The notes: generated from the letters alone by a model not told the origin. Shown: positions 1,842 to 49,537, counted from the stretch's first letter. The stretch: 61,481 nt of DNA from a virus (IMGVR_UViG_3300040781_000188:1-61481); one strand, 5' to 3'. Program-made: numbers and translations.

Positions 1842-2759
1842 ATGATAACACTCAATAAGTATAGAATTTGGTGTGAAACAGAGCAGATGTACTACGAGAC
1901 ATGGGGAGAAACAAGCCCTCCTGCTTGTCCTAATAATTCAGGTCATACGATAGATTCAACTAAAACAACTATTGTTAATAGTTTAACTGAAGAAGAATTA
2001 AGAGATATCTCTGGTAAATTAAGAGTCCAACAGTCATCTAGGCCTATTGGTACTAAAATACATTTTACTGGAAAAGGGGATCATCCAGAATATGTATCTG
2101 ATGTTGGTGGCGGACAAGCTATGAAGTTTGATCACCATATAGGAGATTCACTTACTCAAATTATGTATGTAGATTTTAACTTTGTAGAGAATAGAAGTTT
2201 TATTCACGAAGGTTATGTTACTTGGACTGGATGTAAATTTGACACTATATCATTAGAAATAGTACCGACTGTTACACCTACTATTCCGGCAACAAATACT
2301 CCTTATTTTGTTAATCCTGCTATGCCTCATATTGTATTACCAAAAGAACTTGCTGGTGGACTTAGTAATGTTGATATTACTAGTGATCTTACTCAACCTA
2401 GAGGTGGTTTGATTTATATGCCACAGGCAGGTGACGTTCAATTTGGTCGTCCTCCAGCTTATTGGAATGCAGATTATAATAAAACTACTCATCTTTATGA
2501 AAATATTAGCCCAGCTCCCGGTGGAGATGGTAGGTATAATATATTCACTGTTGAATTTGCTATGTCTGTATTTGCTAACGAACTAATTCTTATGGGTGAG
2601 AATGCCTTGCTTCTTAAAACATCAGACACTGAAGAATTAGGACATGGAATGAGAGTAAGAATAACTGCTAACACTCATGTTAATATAGATGATAACGAAC
2701 CCGATCATGACTGGGGCGCCGGATGCATGCTAACTATGCATAGGACAAGAAGCATATAG
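1842..2759 (+). CDS. Hypothetical protein with N-terminal Cys/His module (YRIWCETEQ...CPNNSGHTID)
   Basis: 305-aa ORF with SD GGAG; module shared with 24516..25559. Confidence 0.65.
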   Translation: MITLNKYRIWCETEQMYYETWGETSPPACPNNSGHTIDSTKTTIVNSLTEEELRDISGKLRVQQSSRPIGTKIHFTGKGDHPEYVSDVGGGQAMKFDHHIGDSLTQIMYVDFNFVENRSFIHEGYVTWTGCKFDTISLEIVPTVTPTIPATNTPYFVNPAMPHIVLPKELAGGLSNVDITSDLTQPRGGLIYMPQAGDVQFGRPPAYWNADYNKTTHLYENISPAPGGDGRYNIFTVEFAMSVFANELILMGENALLLKTSDTEELGHGMRVRITANTHVNIDDNEPDHDWGAGCMLTMHRTRSI

Positions 2760-2770
2760 GAGCAATTATT

Positions 2771-3442
2771 ATGTCGAGTTTATTAGACAACTTTTCTAGA
2801 TATGCTCATGATAAACTATGGTGGAAACTATTAGTTAGATTTATAGGTGATATTAGAGTGTATTGGGGTGGAATGGTTTTATGGGGAGGGTCGTCCTATA
2901 AAATCAAAGGTCCTGATATGAGGTCAATTTTAGATACATTGGTTCCTGGTGATGTATTATTGCGAGTATATAATCATTATATTGGTAGTATATTTGTACC
3001 TGGTTATTGGTCTCATGCTGCTATCTATGTAGGAGACAATAGTGTTATACATATGCTTGGTCATGGTATATGTAAAGAAGACATTCTTACATTTATGCGT
3101 TGTGATGGTATCGCTATTCTTCGATGTACTAAACCAGAATTAATTGGTCCGGCCATTGCTAAAGCGGAAGAATATTTATCAAAAGGAACGGATTATGATT
3201 ATGGTTTTATTCGCGGGGATACAAATCTTTATTGTTCTGAATTAATATACCAAATATTTGATCAACCAGAAGAAGTAAAATTTGATAAATATATATTGCC
3301 AGATGATCTTGCTTGCCAACTATTTGAAGTTATGTATATTAAAGACCATCCTAAATATTCTGTAAAATCAAAAGTTATAATTAAAGACGAACAAGGGGAT
3401 TTAGTTATTGATGTAGAAGAAATAGAAGATGAAGCAAAATAA
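2771..3442 (+). CDS. Permuted papain-like (YiiX/YebB, NlpC/P60) amidase
   Basis: PGDVLL, YWSHAAIYVG, YDY, LYCSELI: His before Cys as in the permuted fold. Confidence 0.85.
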   Translation: MSSLLDNFSRYAHDKLWWKLLVRFIGDIRVYWGGMVLWGGSSYKIKGPDMRSILDTLVPGDVLLRVYNHYIGSIFVPGYWSHAAIYVGDNSVIHMLGHGICKEDILTFMRCDGIAILRCTKPELIGPAIAKAEEYLSKGTDYDYGFIRGDTNLYCSELIYQIFDQPEEVKFDKYILPDDLACQLFEVMYIKDHPKYSVKSKVIIKDEQGDLVIDVEEIEDEAK

Positions 3443-3492
3443 ACCTTTAAGAATTGATCGAGGCCGTATGTGGCTTGGAACGAGGATATAAT

Positions 3493-4077
3493 ATGGCAGA
3501 TTTTGAACGTTCGTTTCTAGCAACTATGGGTCATGAGGGTAAATATTCAAATGATCCGGATGATGCTGGTAAAGAAACTTATAGAGGTATTTCTAGAGTA
3601 TATCATCCAAATTGGGTAGGGTGGCGGCTTATTGATGGACTTAAAAGATCTCCTAATTTCCCAAAGAATCTAGAAAGAGAAAAAGCACTACAAGATTTAG
3701 TTCGCGATTTTTATAAATTAGTTTTTTGGGATAGATTTCAAGGAGACAAGATTCCAGATCAAGAACTTGCCGATGAGATGTTTGATACCGGAGTTAATAT
3801 GAATGTGACTCGGGCTGTCAAGTTTCTCCAGAGAAGTTTAAATTACTTAAACAGAAATTCAAAATTATTTCCAGATATGGTTGATGATGGAGTACTAGGA
3901 CCTACTACTCTAAAATGTTTAGATATTTATATGAAAAATGATCGTATTGATTTATTACTTAAAATGATGAATGTATTACAAGCCCAACATTATATGAATT
4001 ATATGAGTAAGAGTCCAACTCAAGAAAAATATTGTCGCGGGTGGTTTAAAAGGGTTACATTTAAAGTTAACCATTAA
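3493..4077 (+). CDS. Glycoside hydrolase family 108 lysozyme/endolysin with C-terminal peptidoglycan-binding domain
   Basis: HEGKYSNDPDDAGKETYRGI, FDTGVNM, DDGVLGPTT, GWFKRV; start moved to ATG 3493 after GAGGA. Confidence 0.9.
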   Translation: MADFERSFLATMGHEGKYSNDPDDAGKETYRGISRVYHPNWVGWRLIDGLKRSPNFPKNLEREKALQDLVRDFYKLVFWDRFQGDKIPDQELADEMFDTGVNMNVTRAVKFLQRSLNYLNRNSKLFPDMVDDGVLGPTTLKCLDIYMKNDRIDLLLKMMNVLQAQHYMNYMSKSPTQEKYCRGWFKRVTFKVNH

Positions 4078-4088
4078 GGATATTTATT

Positions 4089-4457
4089 ATGGAGAAGAAA
4101 GAAGTCACTGTCATTAGAGAAAGAAGAAAACATAAAAGATCGAAAAAAGTAATTAAGTTTAGAATTACGCCTGAAGAGCAACAAGATATAGTTGGCGAAA
4201 CTAACGATCTTAGTTGTGTAGGTGCTAATTGTAAAATGAACAGTTATGTACCAGAGATGACAAAGTTAGAATTGACTCTTTCCCTTCCTGATGGTGAAGA
4301 ATCTTTTGAAGGTATTGTTGTGCGATGTGATAAAGTCAAAGAAGATGAATATGATACAGCTATATATTTTAGTCAAATTAGTAATGATATAAGAAAGAAA
4401 ATTAATGACTTTATTGATCCAAATTCCGAAGAACAAGAATTTAAAATTGATGGTTAA
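4089..4457 (+). CDS. PilZ domain protein 1
   Basis: RxxxR (ERRKHKR) plus DxSxxG (DLSCVG), GIVVRC. Confidence 0.85.
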   Translation: MEKKEVTVIRERRKHKRSKKVIKFRITPEEQQDIVGETNDLSCVGANCKMNSYVPEMTKLELTLSLPDGEESFEGIVVRCDKVKEDEYDTAIYFSQISNDIRKKINDFIDPNSEEQEFKIDG

Positions 4458-4483
4458 ACAACATTATCAAAGGAGTAAATGTT

Positions 4484-4963
4484 ATGGCTAAATTTCGTTT
4501 AAGAATTCTGGAGAAGTTTGATGTTTGGGCTGATGCCGCTACTGCTTTATCTAATATCACCACAGTCCCTAAGTATGTTGTCATCAAGAAACCAACCCCA
4601 AAAATTGTTGAATATTGGGTTTGTGTACCAATGGTTGGTGATCAATTTGACTATGTTCAGGATCAACTTTTCAATGTAGAGTCCGAACTTAAAGGTCAGG
4701 TCGCGGATCTTGACGCTGCTGTTGCAGATAGAGCCAATATTGTTGATGGGCTTATTCTTGAAATGTCTAATCTTGATGGAACAGTTGATGTTTATACTGA
4801 TGATGATTCGTATGAAAATAATATGGGAACTGATGGTGCTCATCGGGCAACTGAAGGATGGACTCCTGCTAATCAAATCAAACCTTCTGGTCAAGCATTT
4901 AATGATTCCCAGTTGGGTGTTGAAGGTGCCGATTCTAAAGGGTTTGGTAATACTTTAAATTAA
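4484..4963 (+). CDS. Hypothetical protein
   Basis: 159-aa ORF with strong SD AAGGAG. Confidence 0.7.
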   Translation: MAKFRLRILEKFDVWADAATALSNITTVPKYVVIKKPTPKIVEYWVCVPMVGDQFDYVQDQLFNVESELKGQVADLDAAVADRANIVDGLILEMSNLDGTVDVYTDDDSYENNMGTDGAHRATEGWTPANQIKPSGQAFNDSQLGVEGADSKGFGNTLN

Positions 4964-4978
4964 TTGTTTGTTGGAGAT

Positions 4979-5004
4979 TTCCCCCTGTGATTAAGCAGGG
5001 GGAA
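4979..5004 (+). promoter_or_regulatory. Hairpin covering the RBS of the next gene (or weak terminator)
   Basis: TTCCCCCTG / CAGGGGGAA inverted repeat, no U-tract, ending just before ATG 5014. Confidence 0.5.
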
Positions 5005-5013
5005 TACCATAAT

Positions 5014-5226
5014 ATGATAGAAAAGAAGAAATATGTTGGACCAGATAGAAGAGATAGTCTGGTCGATCGACGCCATTATGGATTATATGGTAAATATTTA
5101 CAATGGTTATTTAGAAAGAAAAAAAGATTTTATATATTGATTTGGTTGTCTGGTATTGGTTGGGCGTATATATTTATTGAAATCGGAATTTGGTTAGAAA
5201 GACATGGGATAACCCGCGCATGGTAA
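5014..5226 (+). CDS. Small membrane protein with DRR repeat (YVGPDRRDSLVDRR)
   Basis: DRR motifs followed by one hydrophobic helix; start moved to ATG 5014. Confidence 0.65.
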   Translation: MIEKKKYVGPDRRDSLVDRRHYGLYGKYLQWLFRKKKRFYILIWLSGIGWAYIFIEIGIWLERHGITRAW

Positions 5227-5522
5227 CCGACAATAGACAATTCTTAAGATTAAATAAGTCCGTTGATTTATTAATAAATGATTCTGTACCTGGATGGACT
5301 AATAATCTAAGTTTAGGTGGAATATCCGCTTTTATTAAAAATGATGTGCCATTATTTAAAGAGTTAAGTCTATCCTTAAAATTACCTAGTGGAAATGCTG
5401 TTCTTATAGGTCAATGTTTACGTTTAAGCAAACTAGAAGATGAACTTTATAATGTTGCTATAAGTTTTGAAAATTTACCAAAACGTGTAAGATCTGCGAT
5501 GATAGACTTTATTAATTCCTGA
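5220..5522 (+). CDS. PilZ domain protein 2
   Basis: RQFLR plus NLSLGG; ATG 5220. Confidence 0.8.
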   Translation: MVTDNRQFLRLNKSVDLLINDSVPGWTNNLSLGGISAFIKNDVPLFKELSLSLKLPSGNAVLIGQCLRLSKLEDELYNVAISFENLPKRVRSAMIDFINS

Positions 5523-5534
5523 TAAGTGATTGCT

Positions 5535-5876
5535 ATGAACTCACATTTAGGTAACAGACAATATGAACGAGCTACACATCCTGTTCGATTATCTATAAAT
5601 AAACATATATTAGGATCAACTTTAAATATTAGTATTGGTGGAGCATTTGCTATTGTTAATAAAGAAGTACCAGAGATGGATGAACTTGATATTATTTTAG
5701 AATTACCAGATGGAGACTTTGAAGTTAAAGGTACATGTTTAAGGTCTTCTAGTATGGGAGAAGCTTCGTATCATATCGCTTTATTATTTCAAATAGAGAC
5801 TGAAAATGAAGATAATATATTAAGATTAGCTCGATTTATTAATTGCCAGGAGATGCGTTGCCGGGAGATGCGATAA
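5535..5876 (+). CDS. PilZ domain protein 3
   Basis: RQYER plus NISIGG; ATG 5535. Confidence 0.85.
   Translation: MNSHLGNRQYERATHPVRLSINKHILGSTLNISIGGAFAIVNKEVPEMDELDIILELPDGDFEVKGTCLRSSSMGEASYHIALLFQIETENEDNILRLARFINCQEMRCREMR
5843..5872 (+). repeat. 15-bp tandem duplication
   Basis: TTGCCAGGAGATGCG TTGCCGGGAGATGCG, 1 mismatch. Confidence 0.85.
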
Positions 5877-6112
5877 TGATTTCATTACTCGAGAAAAAAG
5901 TTATTAAAGTAGAAAACACTCCTAATTGGCAAGTACATGATTTCAAGAATCCACCGAATAAGGATATTGCAAAAGATTCTAGAGGGAAACCAATATTTCG
6001 TCGATTCCATCCAAAAGGACGACCAGACCGTTTAATAACCGTCGCGATTAAAAAGAATCCAGGCCCTGCAGGAGGGAAGACGGAAGTCACTTCTGTTTGG
6101 AAGAAAAAATAA
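5876..6112 (+). CDS. Small basic protein with N-terminal tag (MISLLE), putative internal head protein
   Basis: TAATG coupling to the previous gene; shares VENTP...KD..G.PI with 9804..10283. Confidence 0.7.
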   Translation: MISLLEKKVIKVENTPNWQVHDFKNPPNKDIAKDSRGKPIFRRFHPKGRPDRLITVAIKKNPGPAGGKTEVTSVWKKK

Positions 6113-6125
6113 ATAGGAGTAATGG

Positions 6126-6443
6126 ATGATTGACGACAGAAGATTTTATTCTAGAGGAATTATTGAACTAGATATTGCTGTTGGTCCTAGAGCCAAAGGT
6201 AAAACTGTTAATATATCTTTAGGTGGTATTCTTTGTAGGCTTGATACATTTATTCAATCTGATGTTTGTATGGATATTATAATTACTAAGAACGGAGATA
6301 CGATTGAAATGAGAGGGTACTGTAATCGTATCGAGAAAATAAAGAAAAGAGATTATTTAGCATCCATCGAATTTAGTAAAGATTGTATTAGTCCATTTAA
6401 TAAGAATAGACTCAAATTAGCTGAATATTTAAGAGGATATTAA
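6126..6443 (+). CDS. PilZ domain protein 4
   Basis: RFYSR plus NISLGG. Confidence 0.85.
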   Translation: MIDDRRFYSRGIIELDIAVGPRAKGKTVNISLGGILCRLDTFIQSDVCMDIIITKNGDTIEMRGYCNRIEKIKKRDYLASIEFSKDCISPFNKNRLKLAEYLRGY

Positions 6444-6445
6444 AT

Positions 6446-7159
6446 ATGATATCTGTGACTAGAATATATGAAACTTTAGAATTAATGGAACTCGAAGATT
6501 ATATCGAGAATTTAACTGTTGCTTGTTGTGAAACATATCAAGATGAATTTGTTGACGCTGCGGTAAAATATTTAGAAGAAGATGATCATTCTATTTTAGA
6601 TGTTTATTTTGAAAGTCATTCCGAAGTATTAAACGAGCTTAAAGTTAATATTTCAAAAGAGGATGTGGAAGCTGCTAAAAAACATGTTAAAGAAAAATTA
6701 AAAGAATCTGCTAAACAACCAGTTAAGAAATCTCTTATTAGAAAATTAACTAGTAAAATGTATAAGAATAGAGTTGGGCGTGCTATTGTTAAAGGTATCC
6801 GTAAAGCGGGATATGGTACTAAACTTGGTCGAAAAGTTATGGGTAAATATGCGGATGTAAAACAAGCTATGGCTAAAGGTCATAGTGAAATGGGTAAGAA
6901 ATTTACAAAATCAGCAGGACAGTATGGGGCTATGGCTAAAGGTCTTGAAAGAGATGTTATAGGTAATGCATTATATGGAGATACAGCTAAAAATGCAAGA
7001 GATTCTTTTGTGAAAGCTGCCGGTGCTGCAGGACAACGTGCTAGGAGTTCAATGAAAGCAGCAAATCAAACTAAACGTAATTTGAAGATGACAGGTAAAA
7101 GAGAACCAAAAGTTAAATTTTCTATGCCTAAACAAAGAGCTTTACCTCATCCCGCATAA
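6446..7159 (+). CDS. Tagged (MISVTRIYE) protein with acidic N-terminus and basic C-terminus, putative internal head protein
   Basis: Charge switch at VLNE-LKV; Lys/Ala-rich tail. Confidence 0.65.
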   Translation: MISVTRIYETLELMELEDYIENLTVACCETYQDEFVDAAVKYLEEDDHSILDVYFESHSEVLNELKVNISKEDVEAAKKHVKEKLKESAKQPVKKSLIRKLTSKMYKNRVGRAIVKGIRKAGYGTKLGRKVMGKYADVKQAMAKGHSEMGKKFTKSAGQYGAMAKGLERDVIGNALYGDTAKNARDSFVKAAGAAGQRARSSMKAANQTKRNLKMTGKREPKVKFSMPKQRALPHPA

Positions 7160-7174
7160 TCCTGGTAGGTGATA

Positions 7175-7564
7175 ATGCCAAAGAAAAGAATATATTATAA
7201 AGGTAAAAAAGTATCTAAAGGTGAAAAGAAAATAATTGATCATTTACTTAAAAGAGAAATTTCTTTTGAACAAGAGAAGACGTTTGATGATTGTAAAACT
7301 AGGAACAATAGAAAACATCTTCGGTTTGATTTCTTTTTGCCGACATTTAAAGTTCTTATTGAATTTGATGGCGAACATCATTATGGTCCTGTTAATAAAC
7401 ATGCTCGTGCTAAATACGTCCATGAACGTACAGTAATAAATGATCAAATAAAAAATAATTATGTAACAACGACAGGATACGGTTTATTACGGATACCGTA
7501 TTGGGAATATGATAAAATAGAAGAGATAATAGACGAGATGATATCAAATCTAGGAAATAAATAA
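7175..7564 (+). CDS. PD-(D/E)xK (Vsr/DUF559-like) endonuclease
   Basis: SKGEKKI, LRFDFFLP, LIEFDGEHH, LLRIPYW. Confidence 0.8.
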   Translation: MPKKRIYYKGKKVSKGEKKIIDHLLKREISFEQEKTFDDCKTRNNRKHLRFDFFLPTFKVLIEFDGEHHYGPVNKHARAKYVHERTVINDQIKNNYVTTTGYGLLRIPYWEYDKIEEIIDEMISNLGNK

Positions 7565-8625
7565 TGAACCCATCAAATATGGCAAGAAAAATTTTAATAT
7601 TAGATGATGAACAATCTATTGTTGATATTATATCTAAATATTTAATTAGGGTTGGTTATCAACCAATAGGGTTTATTAATGTTGAAAAAGCGTTAGAAAA
7701 ATTCGAACGAACAGAAGATATTTTTCTAGTGTTAACAGATATAGACATGCCAGATATTGACGGTATAACTGTACTTAAATCAATAAAATCGATAAGAATG
7801 GATGTGCAAGTAATTATTGTTTCTGGTGCAGGATCGTCGAATCAAATTGTTGAAGCTTTAAGATACGGGGCTTGTGATTATTTAATGAAGCCAGTTAATT
7901 TTGAATTACTTAATCATTCTATATCTAAATGCTTTGAACGATTTGATTATATTAAACATCGAGATGAATATGAAAAAAATCTCGAGGAACAAGTTAAAAG
8001 ACAAACAGAAAGTATATATTCCTTATTTAATGAATCAATTAAATCGTTGTCTAAAATAACAGCGTTACGAGATCCTTATACTGCTGGTCATCAAAAACGA
8101 GTAACCGATTTAGCTTTAGCTATTAGTCAGGAAATGAATTTAAGTGAAGATATCTGTCAAAGTATTAAAATAGCCGGTTTACTCCATGATGTTGGTAAGA
8201 TTTGTGTTCCAACAGAAATCCTTGTTAAACCTGCAAGATTGACAAAAAAAGAAATAGGATTAATGCAAGAGCATGTCACTGCTAGTTATAATATTGTAAA
8301 GAATATTCCTTTTCAAGATGTATTAAATCATGATGTTGCCGAAATAATACTACAACATCATGAACGTCTTGATGGATCAGGTTATCCTAGAAATCTTAAA
8401 GAAAATGAAATATATTTAGAAACAAAAATACTTTCTGTTTGTGATGTTATAGAATCTATGTCATTACATCGTCCTTATCGTCCCGCCTTAGGATTAAAAA
8501 AGACATTGGATGAAATAAGGAGAGGTTGTGGAACAGTTTATGATAATGATGTTTGTCAGACTGCTATAGCAATATTGGAACCTTATGGAGATAGTTTAAT
8601 GAACTATTTTAAGGGTGAATCATGA
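7564..8625 (+). CDS. Response regulator with HD-GYP cyclic-dinucleotide phosphodiesterase domain (RpfG-like)
   Basis: REC (ILDDE, LTDIDMP, KP) plus RDPYTAGHQKRV, LLHDVGK, HHERLDGSGYP, HRPYR. Confidence 0.95.
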   Translation: MNPSNMARKILILDDEQSIVDIISKYLIRVGYQPIGFINVEKALEKFERTEDIFLVLTDIDMPDIDGITVLKSIKSIRMDVQVIIVSGAGSSNQIVEALRYGACDYLMKPVNFELLNHSISKCFERFDYIKHRDEYEKNLEEQVKRQTESIYSLFNESIKSLSKITALRDPYTAGHQKRVTDLALAISQEMNLSEDICQSIKIAGLLHDVGKICVPTEILVKPARLTKKEIGLMQEHVTASYNIVKNIPFQDVLNHDVAEIILQHHERLDGSGYPRNLKENEIYLETKILSVCDVIESMSLHRPYRPALGLKKTLDEIRRGCGTVYDNDVCQTAIAILEPYGDSLMNYFKGES

Positions 8626-8858
8626 TTTCTCTAGTTGAGTATGAAGTGTTGCAATTCACAAAAAGAGCATATACTGATAAATATCCTGCTATATCGTTAC
8701 CACCAAACATTTCAGATAGAGCAGTCAAAGGAATGGCTTCTCATTTATTGAATATAATAAAACTTCGAGAAAAGAATAACAAACCTTCTGAAGTAGATGA
8801 TAGTCAGGATAAATTTGACGGAACAAATTCAAATTATGATGAAAAGACAAGTATTTAA
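8622..8858 (+). CDS. Small tagged protein (MISLVE)
   Basis: ATGA overlap with the HD-GYP stop. Confidence 0.65.
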   Translation: MISLVEYEVLQFTKRAYTDKYPAISLPPNISDRAVKGMASHLLNIIKLREKNNKPSEVDDSQDKFDGTNSNYDEKTSI

Positions 8859-8909
8859 TTAAAGAATATAATAATTGCCATAGTAGTGTATATGGTGTGG
8901 AGAAGACTA

Positions 8910-9266
8910 ATGAGATCAAAAATTATTTTTGGTTGTTTATTAATCTTTATTTCCTTTATTATTATGGGTGTAGGATTTTCTAAAGGAGATAATGTAACTC
9001 ATTATTCGAACTTCATAACAAAACAAATAAATCAATGTGCGGAACGTAGTCAAAATTTTTGTACTGCAGAAATGCCGAAGATAAAGAGAGAATCTGCAAT
9101 TGATTGTTTAAAGGCTTCTTATTTTTCTTTCCATAGAAAACAATTAATAGACATGATGGTTGAGTATAATATTGGAGTAGAAGAACACCAAATGAGCGTG
9201 TTCTTAAACGGAACGTTCTTTGAAATCCTTAGAACAGCGATTGAAGACTATGATACCAATACATAA
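8910..9266 (+). CDS. Secreted or membrane-anchored hypothetical protein
   Basis: N-terminal hydrophobic segment MRSKIIFGCLLIFISFIIMGVG. Confidence 0.65.
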   Translation: MRSKIIFGCLLIFISFIIMGVGFSKGDNVTHYSNFITKQINQCAERSQNFCTAEMPKIKRESAIDCLKASYFSFHRKQLIDMMVEYNIGVEEHQMSVFLNGTFFEILRTAIEDYDTNT

Positions 9267-9804
9267 TCTTTTTGAACGAAAGTTCATAAGTGGTCCAGAT
9301 TATCAATATAATATGGATGCTTGGAATAATAATAAAACTAATATATTATTAGTGTTAGGTTTGAGTGGTAGTGGTAAGACGACAGATGGCATTTTATTAT
9401 CAAAGAAATATAATGTTGGTTATATCTCTTTGGATGAACTGTTTTATAACCCGATACATGATAAATTTAAAGAAAAAACAGGTCGTTATGCGGCGACAAT
9501 TGAAGAGATGTTAGATATAACTAAAAAGATTAATGTTGGTTTTAAAAAGATGTTACCTACTTTGAAAAAACGGTTTGTTATAGAAGGACTATGGCCGTTA
9601 TTTATGGATCCGAAAGAACTAAAAAATTATTCTATAATAATCAAAGGAACATCTAATTTAAAGTCATCATATCAAGTAAAATCAAGGTCTGATCATCTTA
9701 ATTTGAAAAAATCAGTAGAACGATTTTTATGGACCGCTAATTTTAATAGGCACGTTGATACTCGTATTAAAATGTTTATTCGATATTTTGAAGGATTGAA
9801 ATAA
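9250..9804 (+). CDS. Tagged (MIPIHNLFE) P-loop nucleotide kinase-like protein
   Basis: Walker A GLSGSGKTT, ISLDEL, FVIEG; start moved to ATG 9250. Confidence 0.75.
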   Translation: MIPIHNLFERKFISGPDYQYNMDAWNNNKTNILLVLGLSGSGKTTDGILLSKKYNVGYISLDELFYNPIHDKFKEKTGRYAATIEEMLDITKKINVGFKKMLPTLKKRFVIEGLWPLFMDPKELKNYSIIIKGTSNLKSSYQVKSRSDHLNLKKSVERFLWTANFNRHVDTRIKMFIRYFEGLK

Positions 9805-10283
9805 TGATATCTGTATGTAACTATATAACTCCTATATTTGAAGATAAGAAACCTGATCTTAAAGAGGGCGAATACGCTGTAAGAAAGCGTAAACCTAAAA
9901 AGGTTCTAGATTTCAATCCACGAACTAATCGTATGAAGAAATTTAAACGTACTCAATGGTTTGTTACTAAAATCGCTCCTAAAGATCGTACTGTAGAGAA
10001 CACACCTAAAGATGCTAAAGGGTTTCCCATATGCACACATCAAACATGGCTTATGATTAAAGGAGAACGCAGAACTCCCAACAGCTCTGTTGATAGTTTT
10101 GGTAAATCAGAAGCTAATGGTAGATGGTATGGATGGTCACATAGGGCCATTGCTTCTTTTGGAATTGGTGATGTAGTTAAACCTACTACTTCTGGATTTG
10201 AAAGATTGAAAGAACCATTTACTATTAATTCTGAAGAAAAAGCTAGAGAAGTTGCAAAGAGATTTGCGGAATCTGTTAGCTAG
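9804..10283 (+). CDS. Tagged hypothetical protein (MISVCNYITPIFE)
   Basis: TAATG coupling; WYGWSHRA...FAESVS conserved-looking C-terminal domain. Confidence 0.7.
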   Translation: MISVCNYITPIFEDKKPDLKEGEYAVRKRKPKKVLDFNPRTNRMKKFKRTQWFVTKIAPKDRTVENTPKDAKGFPICTHQTWLMIKGERRTPNSSVDSFGKSEANGRWYGWSHRAIASFGIGDVVKPTTSGFERLKEPFTINSEEKAREVAKRFAESVS

Positions 10284-10292
10284 GAGACTCTT

Positions 10293-10487
10293 ATGTTATC
10301 AATTTTTCAATTATTCGAAATACAACCTAATATGCAAAAAGTGTCAAAAGCGTATTTGGATAAAATCAAGACATTACCTAAAAGTATTAAAAGAGATAAA
10401 CTTTCAAAAGGTTGGATGTTAGCTTTACAAAGACAAAATAAAAGGCCTTCTAGAAAACTTTTGAATTTAGATAATAGTATGTATTAA
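10293..10487 (+). CDS. Small basic tagged protein (MLSIFQLFE)
   Basis: SD AGGAG; tag motif. Confidence 0.7.
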   Translation: MLSIFQLFEIQPNMQKVSKAYLDKIKTLPKSIKRDKLSKGWMLALQRQNKRPSRKLLNLDNSMY

Positions 10488-10509
10488 TATTAAAAGAACC
10501 GATGAAATC

Positions 10510-10716
10510 ATGGAACGTAATCCTAATGTTTTAGAAATGGATAGACGATCAGGAGTTGATAGACGCCAATTTTATAGTGTTGTATATTTTGCGAAAGGCG
10601 GACTAGAGCGAAGATCTGAAATTCCAAGAAGAAAAATTAAATTTGAACGACGACAAAATATCCGTCGAAAATTGAAGGATCGAAGAATTGTTACAAATAT
10701 CATAAAACAAGAGTAG
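10510..10716 (+). CDS. Arg-rich DRR/ERR-repeat peptide
   Basis: DRRSGVDRR, ERRSEIPRR, ERRQNIRR, DRR in 68 aa. Confidence 0.75.
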   Translation: MERNPNVLEMDRRSGVDRRQFYSVVYFAKGGLERRSEIPRRKIKFERRQNIRRKLKDRRIVTNIIKQE

Positions 10717-10725
10717 TGAGTAATT

Positions 10726-11034
10726 ATGATAGATACAAGAAAATATGGAAGAGAACTTAGAAACATACCTATTCGTATAGGTGACATTGAATGTGAAACA
10801 TTTAATCTTAGTCTTGGTGGAGCTAAATGTTATTGTGACAATCCTGTTCTTACTTTAAGAGAATTACCTATATGTTTAACATTACCTGATGGGATTCTAA
10901 ATTTTAAAGGTGTTGTTTTACGCTGTGAAGAAACTATTAAAGATCGATTTGAATTAGGGATATTTTTTAAAAATATATCAATGACGGATGACGATAGAAA
11001 TAAATTAGGTTCTTATTTGGGTTATATTTTTTAA
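10726..11034 (+). CDS. PilZ domain protein 5
   Basis: RKYGR plus NLSLGG, GVVLRC, LGIFF. Confidence 0.85.
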   Translation: MIDTRKYGRELRNIPIRIGDIECETFNLSLGGAKCYCDNPVLTLRELPICLTLPDGILNFKGVVLRCEETIKDRFELGIFFKNISMTDDDRNKLGSYLGYIF

Positions 11035-11053
11035 TTAATAAGGAGCATTTATT

Positions 11054-11272
11054 ATGATTGCAATGTATGAAATGTGGCCATTTAGCAAAAAACAAGATGT
11101 TCCACATCCTGATGAAGGAAAAGAAGCATTAGCTAATAAGGCTGGTGGAACAGATGTGAGCGCATTTAATATGGCAAATCGGCTTAGAAAATTACGTGCT
11201 GCAAAAGAAGATATGTTATCTCAAGCTGGTAATATTGGAAGGAAAGCGGTTACGGTAGCTCAAGGAGATTAA
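11054..11272 (+). CDS. Small tagged protein (MIAMYE)
   Basis: SD AAGGAG. Confidence 0.7.
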   Translation: MIAMYEMWPFSKKQDVPHPDEGKEALANKAGGTDVSAFNMANRLRKLRAAKEDMLSQAGNIGRKAVTVAQGD

Positions 11273-11274
11273 GT

Positions 11275-11520
11275 ATGCTATCTATACTTGAAATGACGGT
11301 AAACTTACATCCAGATGTTAAGAAGTATGCAAAAAATACAACACAACTAAATAAAGGTATATCTAAAGATTTAGCAGATATGGTTGGTGGTGGATCTAAA
11401 GTAGCTCATGATTATTACAAAGGGTTACAGAGGAACCTAAGAAGAAAAGTAGCAAAAATGCAAATTGATAAATTTAAAATGTCAAGAAAAAATCTAGGCG
11501 GACCACAATTAGCTGTTTAG
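11275..11520 (+). CDS. Small basic tagged protein (MLSILE)
   Basis: SD AAGGAG; tag motif. Confidence 0.7.
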   Translation: MLSILEMTVNLHPDVKKYAKNTTQLNKGISKDLADMVGGGSKVAHDYYKGLQRNLRRKVAKMQIDKFKMSRKNLGGPQLAV

Positions 11521-11529
11521 GAATTAAGT

Positions 11530-12954
11530 ATGCAAATACATAACTATTACTCAGATCTGTGTTTATCTGTTCGTACATTATTTGATAATTATATTTTTAA
11601 ACCAACTACTATTCGGTCCTATGATTTTAACATTGCGAACAGGACATTCTCTATTGATAAAGAGTTTAAAACACAGTATGAGTTGCCTGCGTGCATTGTG
11701 ACTTTAAATGATGATCATTATATCTTTGGAGAACGTCCCAATGTTATTCAGCACTTTGGACCGGAAAATCAAATGCAGCATAAGGCTCTTATAAATTTTG
11801 AAACTAATGCTGCCATCACGGTTCAAGAAGAACATGTACAAACTAATATTTCTGTTATGATAAATTGTGAAACACAATTACAAGCTAAAGAACTCGAATT
11901 CACAATCAAACGATATTTGCCTTTGAGTAAATATATTCAAATTCTAGAGTTTACTTCCTTTCTAGAAGTCTCATATGAACATCTGAGAACCCTTGACTAT
12001 GAAAATTATGGCCATAAAATAGCTAACTTATTTACGAAATTAAACGAAAATAAGGGCCAAGTAGAGTATTGTTACTCAATGAGATATCGTCCACATATTC
12101 GTCTAGAAAGTATTTCTTCGAATATAGCCGATTCAAGTCAAAGGGCTTTTTCAGTAAATGCAGAAATTAGTTATTTGACTCAAATGCCGATGTTTACATG
12201 TATTGATAATATACCACAATCTATCGAGGCTATTAATGTTATATACAGTCGGCTTGGTAATGACCCAATATCAGATTATCCTGTACAGAAAGTATTAAAT
12301 ATATTTAAAGAGATTAATTTAGAAGAAAAATTAGGGTCACCTATTCCTAAACCAGTCACAGAAAATGGTAAATGGATCATTGATCCTGATACACAAGTTC
12401 TAAGTTGGGTCGATAGATATACCGGTAATATTTTTGAAGTTGCCTCAAAACCAAATGATGGATATTGGGGGTTGGATGGAAATCAGGTGATTTGGATTAG
12501 AGACTCCGATGGGGAAAAATTCTATTTAGATTCTGAGAAAGAAAGTATTCGAAGGGGATCAATATATGGTCCTGTTTTCCTCAAAATTGGCGATGTTAAT
12601 AAACTCTTTTCAAAGCCGAAGACGTTCATTCGACGTACATATTTAATTTATGATGAAACAGATGTTGGTGCAATGTATACGGATAAGAAGGTTACGTTTT
12701 GTGTAAAATTCGATAAGAATGATTTTGTTATTCATAAACAATATAGATATAATTTTGTTGATAGATATGGTGAAATAATTAGAGATTATCCGTATTTATC
12801 TTGTGATCAAGAAGAAAACAAAGTGTGTTTTTCTGTTGAGGTAAGTGATTGGAAATTTAGGTGGAAACCATCTCTAACCTCTCCGTTAATGATACAATTT
12901 ATAGAACCTTCTCCGACAGGTCTAAAATGTTCAGACTTAGTCACAGGAGGATAA
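11530..12954 (+). CDS. Hypothetical protein, probably structural (neck/tail)
   Basis: 474-aa ORF in structural context; function not recognised. Confidence 0.6.
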   Translation: MQIHNYYSDLCLSVRTLFDNYIFKPTTIRSYDFNIANRTFSIDKEFKTQYELPACIVTLNDDHYIFGERPNVIQHFGPENQMQHKALINFETNAAITVQEEHVQTNISVMINCETQLQAKELEFTIKRYLPLSKYIQILEFTSFLEVSYEHLRTLDYENYGHKIANLFTKLNENKGQVEYCYSMRYRPHIRLESISSNIADSSQRAFSVNAEISYLTQMPMFTCIDNIPQSIEAINVIYSRLGNDPISDYPVQKVLNIFKEINLEEKLGSPIPKPVTENGKWIIDPDTQVLSWVDRYTGNIFEVASKPNDGYWGLDGNQVIWIRDSDGEKFYLDSEKESIRRGSIYGPVFLKIGDVNKLFSKPKTFIRRTYLIYDETDVGAMYTDKKVTFCVKFDKNDFVIHKQYRYNFVDRYGEIIRDYPYLSCDQEENKVCFSVEVSDWKFRWKPSLTSPLMIQFIEPSPTGLKCSDLVTGG

Positions 12955-22806: not shown

Positions 22807-23082
22807 GTGACACAAGAAGAAATATTAAGTAAAAATCGATCTATAATAGGTAATATTGAAGTTGAAGTCGAAATTCGTGTTGGTTCGACTAAGATGTTAA
22901 TTGAGGATATATTAAAATTAGGACCTCAAGCAATTATTAAATTAAATAAATCAAAATATGATCCATTAGATGTATTCGTTAATGGAGTATTATTTGCAAG
23001 AGGGACAGTCGTGAAGATCTCTGGGAGGGATACCTATGGGATCAAAATTACTGAATTCATATCCCCAGACCAACGGATGTAA
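22807..23082 (+). CDS. fliN: Flagellar motor switch FliN-like (SpoA domain) protein
   Basis: IEVEVEIRVG.TKM.I.DILKL...IIKLNK...PLDVFVNG.LFARG.VV...YGIKITE is the SpoA/FliN signature. Confidence 0.85.
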   Translation: MTQEEILSKNRSIIGNIEVEVEIRVGSTKMLIEDILKLGPQAIIKLNKSKYDPLDVFVNGVLFARGTVVKISGRDTYGIKITEFISPDQRM

Positions 23083-25577: not shown

Positions 25578-25949
25578 ATGTCTAATAAATTAAAAACATT
25601 TGTTATTGATGATGATGATTCTGTTATGCGTGTTTTTGTGTTGTTATTAGAAAAACTAGGTTGCGAGTCTAATATGGCATTATCTACTAAACATGCGATT
25701 AAATTAAATAACAAAGAATTATTAGATTCTGATCTTGTATTTTTAGATATAGGAATACCAGGTGAATCTTTTAAATCTAATCTTGATGATTTATTTAGTT
25801 TAAAAAAAGATATGAAAATAATTGTAATGTCTGGTGCAATTTATGATGACGAACGAACTCTAATGAAAGATCGAGGAGTTTATAAAATTATAAGTAAGCC
25901 TGTGTCCTTAGAAGAGTTAAAAGAAATTATAGGTCTCATAGGAGAATAA
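25578..25949 (+). CDS. Single-domain response regulator (REC)
   Basis: VIDDD, VFLDIGIPG, VMSG, SKP. Confidence 0.9.
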   Translation: MSNKLKTFVIDDDDSVMRVFVLLLEKLGCESNMALSTKHAIKLNNKELLDSDLVFLDIGIPGESFKSNLDDLFSLKKDMKIIVMSGAIYDDERTLMKDRGVYKIISKPVSLEELKEIIGLIGE

Positions 25950-25954: not shown

Positions 25955-28900
25955 GTGCAAAAAAATGTTTGTAGGATATTATTGGTTATATTATTATTAA
26001 TAATACCAACACTTTCTAATGCTAATTTTAAACTTAGAGTTGGCGTTTACGAAAATTATCCAGTTATTTTTATGGATGGTGATACACCGAAAGGTTTATT
26101 CATTGATATATTAGAGCATGTTGCTAAGGGTGAAGGTTGGACTCTTGAATATGTTAAATGTGATAGCTGGATAGAGTGTTTCCAAAAAGTAAGATTTGGT
26201 GGTATTGATATTCATGTAGGTGTCGCGTATTCAATTGAAAGAGACGATTATTTAGATTATAATAAAGAATCAATTCTTACATATTGGACAACAATATATC
26301 AGAGACCTTTAGGTGGAATCAACAATATTTTAGATTTGGATGGTAAAACTGTCGCTGTTATGGAAGGTGATTATAATGCTGAAGAATTTATAAATTTAAC
26401 TGAAGAATTCGACATTAATTGTGAGTATGTATGGGTAAAACAACCAATAGAAGTTTTTGATAAATTAGTGAATAATGAAGTTTCTGCGGCTATTATAAAT
26501 AGTATTAGTGGTATGGTTAATAGTGTCGATTATGATGTAAGACAGACATCTATTGTATTTAATCCTTTTGGATCTTTTTTTGTAACACGAGAAGGTAAAT
26601 TCCCTTTAGTGTTACAAGCTATTGATGATCATATTAAAATTGAAAAGAAAGATAAATTGTCATATTATCATTCTCGATTAAATTATTGGATTTCCAAAAT
26701 TAATCCAAGTTATAAAATTGACTTGATATTTATTTATTTATTTTGTGGAGCATTAGGTTTAGTTTTTATATTTTTATATTTTAAAGAAAAGGAAACTAAA
26801 GCTCCAATTAGAATAAGTTTAGTATATTTAATTATAGGAACTATTTGGATTGTTGTTAGTGATAATCTTATGTTTGGGATCACTGATCCAGAAAATTACA
26901 GGCAGTTTCAAACGTTAAAAGGTATATTGTATGTTATATTAACTACATGTCTAATATTTGTTCTTATTAGACATAGTATTCAAAGAATAAGAGATAATGA
27001 AACGAGATATAGTAAAGTAATACAGACTGTTCCACATGGAATGTTAGAACTAGATAAATATGGTGTGATTAAGTTAGCGAACACTACATTTTTTGAAATG
27101 ATTGGATATGGTAATGGTGAATTAATAGGTCAGAAAGTTCAAAGTTTTGTTGATTCTAAATCTATTAAAGATATTAATGAAATGCTTGGTAGTATACGTC
27201 AAGGTTATCCTAATAAAAACACTAATTGGTTTGGTAAAGCGGTAACTAAACGTGGAAGGACTATTGATATTGAGGTAAATTGGAGTTATTTGTATGGAGA
27301 TGATCATATATCTGGTATAGTTGCTGTTGTTACCGACAACACAGAAAAGAATAAAATTCAGATTAGATCTCAAGTAGCTAATGAGATATTAAATTTACTT
27401 AACAGAACTATCGAAATAGATGAAACTATACAGCAGTGTTTAGATTTATTAAAAGATAAACTTTTTATATCTGCTGTCGCTGTGAGATTGACTAAAGATG
27501 GAGATTACCCGTATTTTAAATCTCAGGGGTTCGATGAAGTTTTCACAGAAAAAGAAAAGTGCCTTTTAGCAGTGAAAGAAGTAATTTGTGTTGATCCACA
27601 TGATGAAGACTGTGAACATGTTTTAGATTGTCTTTGTGGTTGTGTTATTGAATACGATGAAGAAATATCTCCTACTCATTTCACAGAAAAGGGATCTTTT
27701 TGGTCGAATAATCTTTGTCAATTCTTCCAGAATTTGTCTATTGAAGATAAAGAACGATATCATATAAGAGGTTCTTGCGAAGTTGCAGGTTTTAAATCTA
27801 TTTGTCTTATTCCTCTTCGTTTTGGGAATAGAACAATTGGTTTGTTACAATTAAATGACAGACGCGTAGGTGTATTTACTAAAGATGTTATTAATTTCTT
27901 TGAAGGAATTGCTGATAGTTTAGGTATAGCTTTATATCGAAAAGTAACAGAATTAGAATTAACGAAAAGTGAACGTACTCTAAATGCTATATTTAATGCG
28001 GCTCCTATTGGTATGGGTATAATTAATAACAGGATTTTTGGAGTAACAAATAAGCATCTTCATAAAATGATAGGTCGTGGGCCAGAAGAACTTTTTGGTA
28101 AAAGTGCAAGAATACTTTATCCTACTCAAGAAGAATATGAAAGAGTTGGTCGAGAAAAACATCCTCAAGTCGAAAAATATGGTATAGGATGGGTCGAAAC
28201 CAAATTCAAACATAAAGACGGTACAATTAAGGATATTATTCTTAGTTCTTCAAGTATTGGTGAAGATGGTGAAATGGTTTTTACTAGTGTTGATATAACA
28301 GAACGTAAAAATGCTGAAGAAAAGATTATAAGAAGTGAAGTGAAGTATAGAGGATTATTTGAAAACATGTTAGATGGTTTCGCTTTACATGAAATAATAG
28401 TTAATGGTCACGGGGTACCTATTGATTATAGATATTTAACTGTTAATCCTGCATTTGAAAGAATAACAGGGTTTAAAAAAGATTATGTTGAAGGAAAAAC
28501 TGTTAAAACTGTGTTACCTAAAATAGAGGATCATTGGATTCAAAGATTTGGTAATGTTGCTTTAACAGGGGAATCTGATAATTTCGAAGAAGAAGTTATG
28601 AGTATGGATAATAGAGTTTTTGAGGTAACAGCATATAGCCCTAAAACAAATCAATTTGCGGTTTTATTTCAAGACATAACTGATCGTAAAAGGGCAGAAA
28701 ACGATCTAAAAGAGAAAAATGATCAATTTGATAAGTTAATATCAGGGTTATTTGATGGGTTTGTTAGAGTGTCATTAGACAGAATTGTTATTTCTGCTAA
28801 TCGTGCTTTTTGTGAAATGATTGGTTACACTGAAGATGAATTAAAAGCTATTACATTTGAGAATTTTACACATCCTGATGATTGGGTGTGGGAGAAACCT

Positions 28901-30283
28901 ATTGTTGAAAAATTAGTAAATGGCGAGCAAATACCCCCTTATGAAAAAAGATATATCCATAAAGATGGGAGTGTTATAGATATTGAACTTGCTCCTTATC
29001 CTATTTCTGATGATTCTGGTAATGTTGTTGAATTATGGGGTATTGCAAAGAATTTAACGCCAGTTAGAAATGTTCAATTAGAAATAATAGAAAAAGAAAA
29101 ACAATTACGTCGGGCTTCTAAAATGGAAGCTGTTGGTACTTTAGCTGGTGGATTAGCTCATGACTTTAATAATATTATTCAAATAGTAAGTGGTAATGTT
29201 CAATTAATGCGTATGGATTTGGATTCTGACGGAAAAACTTCTGATTGGAGTAAAATGTTAAATGATATGTTAGAAGCTTCTGAGAGAGGAGCTGCTATTG
29301 CAAAACGTCTTTTAACTTTTAGTCGTCAAGTCGAAAGCCATCTTGTACCAATTGATATCAATGATGAAATTATTATTGCTCATAAATTATTAGACAGAAC
29401 TGCAACGTGGCCGGTTTTAGTTAATATTAAATTAGATCTTGATGAAGATATTTGTTTAATTTTAGCGGACTCTACACAGATTAATCAGATCGTTACAAAT
29501 CTATGTATTAATGCTAAAGATGCAATGCCTTCTGGTGGATCAATAACAATTAAAACTAGAGTTGCAGAATTAGATGAATTATATTGTCGTTCTCAACCTG
29601 AAGCTGTCCCGGGAAGATACGTTTGTATGGTAGTTGCTGATGATGGTATAGGTATGAAAGCTTCTATTCTTGAAAGAATATTTGAACCATTTTTCACAAC
29701 TAAAAGTACAGGAAAAGGAACAGGATTAGGTTTAGCTGTTGTTTATGGTATTGTTAAAAATCATAATGGTTTTATAACTGTATATAGCGAAGAAAATATC
29801 GGAACGGAGTTCAAAGTGTATGTGCCATGTACAGATCAAACTCTTAGAGAAAATAATAGTTCTTCTGTTTGTGATTTATCTCAAGGTAATAAAGAATTAA
29901 TACTTATTGTAGATGATGAGTCTAGTATACGGTTTATTCTTAAAGATATATTAAGAAGGTATAATTTTAAAGTTCTCGAAGCTAATAATGGAACTACTTG
30001 TTTAGATTTATATAGTAAATATATGGATAAAATAGAACTTGTTATTTTAGATCTAGTTATGCCTGGAATAAGCGGAACAGAAACATTAAAAGAAATTTTA
30101 AAGATTAATCCTGATGCTAAAGTTATTATTTCTAGTGGGTATTCGTCTAATGGTCCAGTTAAAGATTCAATTGAAAATGGAGCATATTCTTTTATAAATA
30201 AACCATATACATTAAATAATCTTATTAGTGTCATTAAGAGAGTTCTTAGTGGCAAAAGAGATGGAGTAGATGAGATATGTTAA
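25955..30283 (+). CDS. Membrane hybrid histidine kinase (periplasmic solute-binding domain, TM helices, PAS, GAF, 3 PAS, HisKA, HATPase, REC)
   Basis: [60 protein letters not shown]. Confidence 0.95.
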
Positions 30284-48631: not shown

Positions 48632-48817
48632 ATGTTATCTATATCTAGATTATTTGAAGAAATATCATCATTTCCGCTTTCAAGGAAACTACAGAAAACC
48701 GCATCTAAATTATATATGCGTGGTACCCCAGAATATAACACTATTGCTCAAAGAATTGCGGAAAAGGCTAAAACAGTTTCTCCAAAATATCAAGCAATGA
48801 AAAGGAAGCTTTCGTAA
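48632..48817 (+). CDS. Small basic tagged protein (MLSISRLFEE)
   Basis: SD GAGGG; tag motif. Confidence 0.7.
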   Translation: MLSISRLFEEISSFPLSRKLQKTASKLYMRGTPEYNTIAQRIAEKAKTVSPKYQAMKRKLS

Positions 48818-49176
48818 TGCTATACACATACAAAGCCAAATATTTATCTAATTATGATGGGGACACTATCGACTTCTTAGTTGATTTAGGTTTTGGTATT
48901 TCTTATAAAATAAGAGTAAGGTTATTAGGGGTTAATACTCTAGAAATAAGATCTAAGATTGAAGAAGAAAGAGTTAAGGCAAGATTAGCAAGAGATGTTG
49001 TAAAAATTGAATTGTCTAATGCTGAAGAAATTATAATCAAAACAAAAAAAGATAAGACCGGCAAATATGGTCGATATTTGGCCGATATATTATATAAGCG
49101 CGATAAAATGGCAGAGATGCCAACTAGTTTGGCTCAATTACTTTTAGAACGAGAATTAGCTGTTCCGTATGAATAA
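48817..49176 (+). CDS. Thermonuclease (SNase-like)
   Basis: YDGDTI, VRLLGVNTLE, GKYGRYLA. Confidence 0.9.
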   Translation: MLYTYKAKYLSNYDGDTIDFLVDLGFGISYKIRVRLLGVNTLEIRSKIEEERVKARLARDVVKIELSNAEEIIIKTKKDKTGKYGRYLADILYKRDKMAEMPTSLAQLLLERELAVPYE

Positions 49177-49537
49177 AGAAAGACTTGCTATGATAACTGT
49201 CGAAAGAAGAAAACACAATAGAATTAAAACACCTAAAATTTCATTTGCTGCTATTACCGGTAAAGAACTTTCTATGATAGTAAATAAGAAAGTTGTATTT
49301 GGTAGAGTGTACGATATAGATCCTGATGGGTTATGTGTAACATCTGATACGTTATTACCCGAGGGTAAAAATATTGAATTAATATTAAGACTATTTAAAA
49401 AAGATGTGAAATTTAATGGTAATATTATTCGAGCTAATAAAGAACACGACACTACATTTCTGGCGTTTCTATTTAATTGGAAAAATACACCAGAACAGAG
49501 TAAAGAATTTCTTCAAAAATTCTTAGAGACTATATGA
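49169..49537 (+). CDS. PilZ domain protein 7
   Basis: ERRKHNR plus variant DIDPDG, GNIIR. Confidence 0.75.
   Translation: MNKERLAMITVERRKHNRIKTPKISFAAITGKELSMIVNKKVVFGRVYDIDPDGLCVTSDTLLPEGKNIELILRLFKKDVKFNGNIIRANKEHDTTFLAFLFNWKNTPEQSKEFLQKFLETI

Follow-up and report, generated by a model that had tools for sequence, protein, structure and literature searches.

The virus record IMGVR_UViG_3300040781_000188 (61,481 bases, the whole of which was analyzed and is called the window here) encodes seven stand-alone PilZ-domain proteins, five of them between positions 4089 and 11034. We favor, with a probability of about one half, a model in which the seven genes constitute a phage-lineage family of minimal receptors for cyclic di-GMP (c-di-GMP), the read-out arm of a phage-borne circuit in which each protein serves as a separate adaptor. 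The phage would then probably read and rewire the c-di-GMP signal in infected cells, beyond soaking it up. c-di-GMP decides whether bacteria swim or settle, and to our knowledge the phage interference with this signal known so far consists only of a few small inhibitors of host enzymes. If the model is correct, a virus would be running a second-messenger network inside its host by means of a sensor kinase of its own, a regulator that degrades c-di-GMP, and diversified receptors.

Seven small PilZ proteins with conserved ligand motifs

PilZ domains were scored against Pfam family PF07238 (cutoff, 22.5 bits), and each copy was aligned over the two c-di-GMP-binding motifs, RxxxR and [D/N]xSxxG. 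Lengths are in amino acids (aa), and starts are given for the open reading frame (ORF) where it opens upstream.

4089 to 4457, plus strand: PilZ-A, 122 aa, 35.1 bits, both motifs intact
5220 to 5522, plus strand: PilZ-B1, 100 aa from ATG 5220 (ORF opens with TTG at 5190), 27.0 bits, motifs intact
5535 to 5876, plus strand: PilZ-B2, 113 aa from ATG 5535 (ORF opens with GTG at 5526), 30.2 bits
6126 to 6443, plus strand: PilZ-D, 105 aa, 19.9 bits, under the cutoff
10726 to 11034, plus strand: PilZ-E, 102 aa, 29.1 bits
23099 to 23443, plus strand: PilZ-F, 114 aa (ORF opens at 23036), 38.9 bits, directly upstream of a gp5-like hub gene
49169 to 49537, plus strand: PilZ-G, 122 aa, 29.2 bits, second motif degenerate (DIDPDG, serine lost)

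The original prediction had listed the first five of these genes and stated that each retains both motifs. All five are real, with ATG starts inside called ORFs and products of 100 to 122 aa, and the alignment shows RxxxR and [D/N]xSxxG intact in 5/5; the count was too low, since PilZ-F and PilZ-G have to be added. A profile built from the copies detected no eighth PilZ-like ORF among the 230 window ORFs of at least 45 aa. Six of the seven copies reach the PF07238 cutoff (27.0 to 38.9 bits), and PilZ is the sole Pfam family matched by the seven proteins at an E value of ≤0.001, with no sponge family matched; the PilZ-A product also lists PMSI1 at an E value of 0.037, far under the cutoff of that family. 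RxxxR is present in 7/7 window copies and in all 16 clade sequences (window copies and their relatives), while the full second motif is found in 6/7 and 12/16, respectively. The motif serine is replaced in the other four clade sequences, which are PilZ-G and three relatives. The predicted isoelectric points (pI) of the window copies range from 5.1 to 9.7.

A segment shared downstream of the motifs had also been proposed, and the signature LP[DS]G...G.(V/C)(V/L)R does recur in four of the seven window copies (those at 4089, 5190, 5526, and 10726). Because only 7 of 260 PilZ domains cut from the best 150 library matches carry it, a set that includes orthologues of the window copies (P0012, P0015, and P0019), the signature appears from the sequences to be a real shared feature of the copies. 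The candidate explanation that the segment is generic PilZ sequence was ruled out by the same rarity among the other PilZ domains examined.

The sub-cutoff score of PilZ-D was addressed by modeling. Its AlphaFold2 model, built from an alignment of nine relatives, is a six-strand barrel with a C-terminal helix (predicted local distance difference test [pLDDT], 87.0), and six solved structures match it at an E value of ≤0.001; the best are MotI (top; template modeling [TM] score, 0.71), the BcsA PilZ domain, and MapZ. The PilZ-D orthologue in a related phage, G001 (introduced below), scores 32.7 bits with PF07238, above the cutoff. On the strength of the modeled fold, the structure matches, and the orthologue score, we count PilZ-D as a PilZ domain. 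The AlphaFold2 model of PilZ-A is likewise a PilZ barrel plus helix (pLDDT, 73.5), and its top Foldseek rows are all PilZ domains, none at an E value of ≤0.001. The solved PilZ domains matched by these two models, out of seven copies, are those of BcsA, MrkH, MotI, YcgR, and MapZ, and the MapZ-CheR1 structures 5xly and 5y4r are among the matches. By sequence, MotI is the sole solved protein matched (HMMER; E value, 5e-6). Outside the fold, in a segment with a pLDDT below 50, PilZ-A carries a C-terminal F-x-I-D tail that is kept in 11 of 13 distinct orthologues and looks like a docking motif.

A T4-like jumbo phage lineage

The window is a linear record with an estimated completeness of 22% and a G+C content of about 32%; its plus strand carries nearly every gene, and between 164 and about 16,500 the genes are packed tightly and run in one direction. 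Phage genes in the window include those for a gp5-like baseplate hub, a tail-tube-like protein, and a T4-type terminase. For more than 60 kb, the window and its relative G001 (IMGVR_UViG_3300028920_000044; 109,194 bases; completeness, 41%) are collinear, with protein identities of about 25 to 78%. Further genes of G001 encode a T4-like portal, a prohead protease, a DNA polymerase of family B, a DnaB-like helicase, and a single-stranded DNA-binding protein. Given these structural and replication genes and the collinear relative, the PilZ genes can be placed, on gene content, inside a T4-like jumbo phage genome and not in flanking bacterial DNA. Below, L001 and L005 denote loci of G001, and L013, L014, and L015 three shorter phage-like metagenome contigs (33 to 36% G+C).

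The five PilZ genes of G001 each correspond in position to one of the window copies:

Window 4089 (PilZ-A): 54% identity to the G001 counterpart
Window 5526 (of which 5190 is the tandem sister): L001:11216-11566, same position, 33% identity
Window 6126: L001:14305-14691, 37% identity
Window 10726: L001:18531-18893, syntenic, 34% identity
Window 23036 (PilZ-F): L005:13823-14224, 37.5% identity, both directly upstream of the hub gene

PilZ-G (49169) has no counterpart in the G001 fragment. PilZ-A is the most widely kept copy, being present in all four relative loci (L001, L013, L014, and L015), that is, in five phages including the window, at 51 to 55% identity and always after a GH108 lysozyme gene. 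L013, L014, and L015 retain the order lysozyme, PilZ-A, and a gene like that at 4484; L015 additionally carries the next PilZ gene, and in L013 PilZ-A is the sole PilZ gene, with no HD-GYP gene, within 16 kb.

The paralogues are old

The window copies are only 14 to 35% identical to one another, and the sole DNA repeat between them is 27 nucleotides (nt) long and lies over the second motif; on this sequence evidence, the duplications that made the copies appear to be ancient. A profile of the 16 clade sequences, run against 1.84 billion representatives, gave 10,673 matches at an E value of ≤0.001, and many of the best ones are tandem PilZ-PilZ proteins. Every window copy has its own library representative at 52 to 100% identity, among them P0019 for PilZ-B1 (85%), P0012 for PilZ-B2 (81%), P0099 for PilZ-G (52%), and P0040, which is identical to PilZ-F over 114 aa.

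In a FastTree tree of 276 rows (the 260 library domains plus the 16 clade sequences), 13 of the 16 fell into one 61-row clade with a support of 95; PilZ-F, its orthologue, and PilZ-G lie outside it. A quick IQ-TREE search was run on 87 of these rows, namely, the 61-row clade, the three other clade sequences, P0040, and 22 random rows (P0099 being among the draws), with 189 left out. It recovered the 61 rows with a Shimodaira-Hasegawa-like approximate likelihood ratio test (SH-aLRT) value of 93 and four orthologue groups with support of 83 to 94, on a backbone that did not resolve. PilZ-B1 groups with the 5526 copy and L001:11216 (SH-aLRT, 84), and the lineages of 5190, 5526, 6126, and 10726 make up one clade of the maximum-likelihood tree with a weak support of 70. 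Constraining the five listed lineages together, a group chosen after the tree was seen, changed the log likelihood by +5.06 relative to the free search (approximately unbiased test, P = 0.591). A single origin of these five lineages is therefore not rejected: it is compatible with the tree and not proven by it.

Among the nearest non-phage relatives of PilZ-A are stand-alone PilZ genes that encode about 120 aa (30 to 38% identity), whose bacterial contigs hold housekeeping neighbors (PurE, TrmB, NAD kinase, and an ABC permease). These relatives and their contexts place PilZ-A, as judged by sequence, in a family of free-standing bacterial receptors. The history was likely one capture of a bacterial stand-alone PilZ gene followed by diversification in the phage lineage. 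The earlier suggestion of duplication inside the phage thus survives in part: the positional orthologues in G001 (5/7), the separate library orthologues, and the tree indicate that the paralogues diversified in the phage lineage, but the events were ancient. A phylogeny with bacterial PilZ domains had been proposed as a check for recent pick-up from a host; synteny with G001 and library orthologues at 52 to 100% identity indicate that the copies are not recent acquisitions.

A probable regulated signaling module in the same genome

The window also encodes a set of signaling proteins:

7564 to 8625, plus strand: receiver (REC)-HD-GYP response regulator, predicted c-di-GMP phosphodiesterase (HD_5, 126.4 bits; Response_reg, 77.5 bits)
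25578 to 25949, plus strand: single-domain CheY-like receiver (Response_reg, 47.9 bits)
25955 to 30283, plus strand: membrane hybrid sensor histidine kinase, 1442 aa (Pfam domains)
54512 to 55270: PAS-HisKA protein, an "incomplete" histidine kinase in that it has no ATPase domain; the terminase gene lies just downstream

In the REC-HD-GYP translation, the HD and HHExxDGxGYP motifs, the receiver Asp and Lys positions, and the acidic pocket are intact, and the orthologue in G001 is 47% identical. The CheY-like receiver has a positional counterpart at L005:11229-11597 that scores 64.2 bits. The hybrid kinase consists of a signal or transmembrane segment, a periplasmic solute-binding-like domain, transmembrane helices, and PAS, GAF, HisKA, HATPase, and REC domains; hydrophobic segments were seen in its N-terminal 382 residues, and its G001 orthologue has 1692 aa. 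G001 thus retains the HD-GYP protein, the single receiver, and the hybrid kinase, as well as a Tad6-like gene described below. Together, the REC-HD-GYP protein, the CheY-like receiver, and the hybrid kinase look like a complete regulated module. Among phage records, 107 match the HD-GYP query, 5 of them over at least 80% of its length.

From the observed gene content, motifs, fold, synteny, and ancient paralogy, we infer ligand binding, phosphotransfer, partners, and output as follows. The membrane hybrid kinase would sense conditions outside the infected cell via its periplasmic ligand-binding domain. It would then phosphorylate the phage receivers, including the one fused to the HD-GYP phosphodiesterase, which would lower c-di-GMP. 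The diverged PilZ proteins may bind c-di-GMP through RxxxR and [D/N]xSxxG, each relaying the level to its own host or phage partner, and by analogy their mode would be that of bacterial single-domain PilZ adaptors, in which MapZ acts on CheR1, HapZ on SagS, and MotI on MotA. The pI spread of 5.1 to 9.7 suggests subfunctionalized adaptors with different surfaces. The genes have been kept even where the motif serine is replaced (4 of 16 clade sequences), so that ligand capture alone would not explain their retention.

A more far-reaching version of this model, which we rate as less likely than not, is a complete viral "sense, degrade, read" circuit for c-di-GMP in which up to seven PilZ adaptors steer separate targets. 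If it were true, these targets could comprise the flagellar motor, surface adhesion, and perhaps the timing of lysis (PilZ-A being fixed beside lysozyme genes), and the phage would set the behavior of the infected cell by outside conditions.

A possible link to the flagellum

A FliN-like gene adjoins one of the PilZ copies:

22807 to 23082, plus strand: FliN C-terminal (SpoA) domain protein, 91 aa (PF01052, 70.0 bits), just upstream of PilZ-F

The FliN-like protein scores 73.5 bits with TIGR02480, under the cutoff of 84 for that family, and is 30 to 43% identical to the FliN regions of four bacterial metagenome-assembled genomes (MAGs), with an invariant IEDILKLG block. Its gene ends 16 nt before ATG 23099, the PilZ-F start implied by the identical P0040. 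A brief literature search found no report of a phage FliN homologue. As MotI is the sole solved protein matched by sequence and the top PilZ-D fold match, and a FliN-like gene lies beside PilZ-F, a link to motility is suggested, and the targets of the adaptors are most likely the motility and surface behavior of the infected cell. The link is weakened by G001, which has no FliN-like gene.

Weighing the models

Several points count against a phage-borne read-out circuit. Neither a GGDEF (diguanylate cyclase) nor an EAL match was found in the six frames of the window and G001 fragments, and these fragments span only 22% and 41%, respectively, of the estimated genomes. For the tree rows known only from the library, we infer phage origin from orthology. 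The FliN-like gene has no counterpart in G001 and its adjacency to PilZ-F may be incidental, while the similarity to MotI is at the domain level only, with other PilZ structures scoring nearly as high. The Tad6-like anti-defense gene lies in the PilZ block, which could be an anti-defense neighborhood. Finally, a degrading enzyme together with many binders would also be the profile of a pure c-di-GMP sink.

Such a physiological sink is the strongest of the alternatives, although we consider it unlikely. In that case the PilZ proteins would lack partners of their own; they and the HD-GYP enzyme would reduce free c-di-GMP and compete it away from host receptors, thereby shutting off both matrix production and braking of the motor. 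The retention of both motifs in 6/7 window copies that have no output domain would be expected, as would a c-di-GMP-degrading enzyme in fragments devoid of GGDEF and EAL domains, and many copies could increase binding capacity. However, dosage predicts similar copies, and the copies here are 14 to 35% identical, span pI values of 5.1 to 9.7, and are each separately conserved. The serine lost in 4/16 sequences, the conserved tail of PilZ-A beyond the fold, and L013, which has PilZ-A alone within 16 kb, also count against a sink.

The original prediction had gone further and proposed a c-di-GMP sponge, or a competing adaptor, possibly directed against CBASS, an antiphage defense that signals through cyclic oligonucleotides. 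The adaptor half of this wording comes close to the model that we favor; the sponge half is not favored, and a sponge against CBASS is not supported in view of the regulated HD-GYP, receiver, and kinase genes, the seven diverged paralogues with pI values of 5.1 to 9.7, and the serine lost in 4/16. In its full form, this proposal would have the PilZ proteins sequester c-di-GMP, or a different cyclic dinucleotide, from a CBASS (e.g., TIR-STING), with the HD-GYP protein as an Acb1-like destroyer of the signal. STING systems are found in Bacteroidota, a taxon that the 32% G+C of the window would fit. Activation of bacterial STING by c-di-GMP is described in the accessible portions of PMC8748872 and PMC8204762, the PilZ proteins are small and retain ligand motifs, their block includes a Tad6-like gene, and the HD-GYP gene of Microcystis phage MaAM05 is annotated (by annotation only) as a phosphodiesterase of 3'3'-cyclic GMP-AMP. 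We nevertheless regard an anti-defense sponge as very improbable. Phage sponges are not known to be encoded by more than one gene per phage. With its gating receiver domain and a sensor kinase alongside, the HD-GYP enzyme speaks for signaling over constitutive destruction of an immune signal. The seven proteins match PilZ only at an E value of ≤0.001 and no known sponge family, the FliN-like gene hints that the host is flagellated and uses c-di-GMP signaling of the ordinary kind, and described sponges, as far as the available part of PMC13728456 goes, are small homo-oligomers of other folds, as opposed to the seven diverged paralogues here. Were the sponge reading true after all, the nucleotide sponges of phages would gain a new fold in PilZ, which would also be a tool against immunity based on c-di-GMP.

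It is just as improbable that the PilZ fold is used here without c-di-GMP, in ligand-independent adaptors like the non-binding PilZ proteins of Xanthomonas or, for PilZ-F, in a protein of the virion or one that is injected: PilZ-G and three relatives have lost the serine, the gp5-like hub gene immediately follows PilZ-F in both phages, and stand-alone PilZ proteins that have lost binding are described in the accessible text of bioRxiv 10.1101/814665, but RxxxR in 16/16 and the full second motif in 12/16 sequences, across paralogues that are 14 to 35% identical, point to ligand binding.

Neighboring genes and occurrence

Four further genes lie in the block around the PilZ copies:

4484 to 4963, plus strand: conserved protein, 159 aa, directly after PilZ-A (40 to 46% identity in L001, L013, L014, and L015)
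4987 to 5226, plus strand: small membrane protein whose N terminus carries a [DE]RR..DRR motif; its gene always immediately precedes a PilZ-B gene
9804 to 10283, plus strand: Tad6-like protein, possible anti-Thoeris gene (PF25188, 64 bits, C-terminal two-thirds of the profile)
10510 to 10716, plus strand: small soluble protein, rich in arginine and carrying the motif DRRSGVDRR, adjoining PilZ-E

The 4484 to 4963 product matched no Pfam or NCBIfam family. In the 4987 to 5226 protein, the motif and a C-terminal hydrophobic helix are kept in the window, G001, L014, and L015, and a homologue of the 10510 to 10716 protein adjoins the PilZ-E orthologue in G001. There are thus two small arginine-rich families (4987 to 5226 and 10510 to 10716) with a common [DE]RRxG..DRR motif, each beside a PilZ gene. 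Orthologues of the Tad6-like protein are 70% identical in G001 and 50% identical in L013; Tad6 is described in the available part of PMC13728456 as a ThsB binder and not a sponge.

Directly upstream of PilZ-A, at 2771 to 4077, are two cell-wall hydrolase-like genes, for a C92/NlpC-P60-like amidase and a GH108 lysozyme with a PG_binding_3 domain. An SNase-like gene directly precedes a PilZ gene twice, in the window at 48817 to 49537 (PilZ-G) and at L001 14034 to 14691 (the PilZ-D orthologue); L013 has an SNase-like nuclease gene with no PilZ gene after it. The lysine-rich protein of window 6446 to 7159 is represented by two tandem paralogues in G001 (L001 12554 to 14024). Farther downstream, a full-length group I intron at 55766 to 56011 (RF00028, 111.8 bits) splits the terminase large-subunit gene into two window ORFs (55236 to 55778 and 56110 to 57411), which correspond to one 617-aa ORF in G001. 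A RecA/UvsX/KaiC-like gene is also split in the window (34495 to 34875 and 34935 to 35948) and is one 484-aa ORF in G001; no Rfam match was found at this break (34495 to 35948).

No tRNA genes were detected in the 61,481-base window, and no c-di-GMP riboswitch was found in it at Rfam gathering scores. Promoter and terminator counts in a scan of 2500 to 12000 were at the level of shuffled sequence. In the RNA-library run X11, three short contigs making up a small share fall on 4464 to 4892, 6859 to 7092, and 7857 to 8101, none of them over a PilZ gene; they are uninformative on transcription or its level. Near-identical DNA is present in runs labeled microbial mat metagenome (share of words, 0.79 to 0.97), one of which may be the sample that the record came from, and, at a lower share, in the runs of a second study, with only small shares in sediment-labeled runs; run X1 includes a record of about 201 kb. 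Scans of viral contigs with the single proteins PilZ-E and HD-GYP gave no further relatives, and a relative search with a profile of a conserved 474-aa neighbor protein recovered only G001 again. Species-genome queries with the FliN-like, HD-GYP, and PCMT proteins returned scattered phyla at 25 to 51% identity, and P0075, which belongs to the lineage of PilZ-E and lies on a 4.4-kb contig, is listed under a Melioribacteraceae MAG; we claim no host from either the queries or this label.

Comparison with known systems

The five PilZ copies searched matched no PHROG family at an E value of ≤0.001; three of the seven (4089, 23099, and 10726) gave no tblastn match at an E value of ≤0.01 among 50,697 GenBank phage records, in which window 4000 to 11100 also had no DNA match. 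Full-text searches with phage terms found, in the portions of articles they reach, no literature on phage-encoded PilZ-domain proteins, and the words "phage" and "virus" are absent from a comparative survey of PilZ domains (bioRxiv 10.1101/814665). The accessible parts of PMC11461919, PMC13436744, and PMC8085984 describe phage proteins acting on a host PilZ protein or a host cyclase. If the adaptor model is correct, the seven small proteins make up a tractable set, whose partners would reveal the host processes that a jumbo phage must control.

Among described phage proteins, the sponges Tad1, Tad2, Acb2, and Acb4 are similar in being small and in that the PilZ proteins, too, could bind a cyclic nucleotide and leave it intact. 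To go by the available part of PMC13728456, those sponges differ in being homo-oligomers that capture immune signals; the phage PilZ proteins belong to unrelated folds and families, and are seven diverged paralogues of a receptor for a housekeeping signal with regulated signaling genes alongside.

At the level of the circuit, the closest comparison is RpfC/RpfG of Xanthomonas, where a hybrid sensor kinase controls a REC-HD-GYP phosphodiesterase and PilZ proteins act downstream. The phage genome likewise combines a hybrid kinase, a REC-HD-GYP protein whose motifs are intact, and PilZ proteins. In contrast to RpfC/RpfG, its genes are spread over 26 kb of phage genome without a signal synthase, the sensor of its kinase is periplasmic binding-protein-like, and its phosphotransfer is putative.

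The flagellar clutch and brake proteins offer a second comparison. Bacillus subtilis MotI/DgrA (YpfA, PDB 5vx6) resembles the phage proteins in sequence (E value, 5e-6) and in the PilZ-D fold (TM score, 0.71), and a FliN-domain gene lies beside PilZ-F. Unlike MotI and Escherichia coli YcgR, which act with c-di-GMP as a flagellar clutch and brake, respectively, the phage proteins lack an extra N-terminal PilZN-type domain.

The individual proteins are most like the bacterial single-domain adaptors MapZ/PA4608, which binds CheR1, HapZ/PA2799, which binds the receiver of the kinase SagS, and Caulobacter DgrA. All have about 100 to 125 aa, a PilZ barrel with a C-terminal helix, both motifs, and no other domain, and such adaptors, too, occur as several diverged paralogues per genome. 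The phage proteins are set apart from them by being encoded by a virus and by a sequence similarity to the solved ones that is too low for HMMER, except for MotI.

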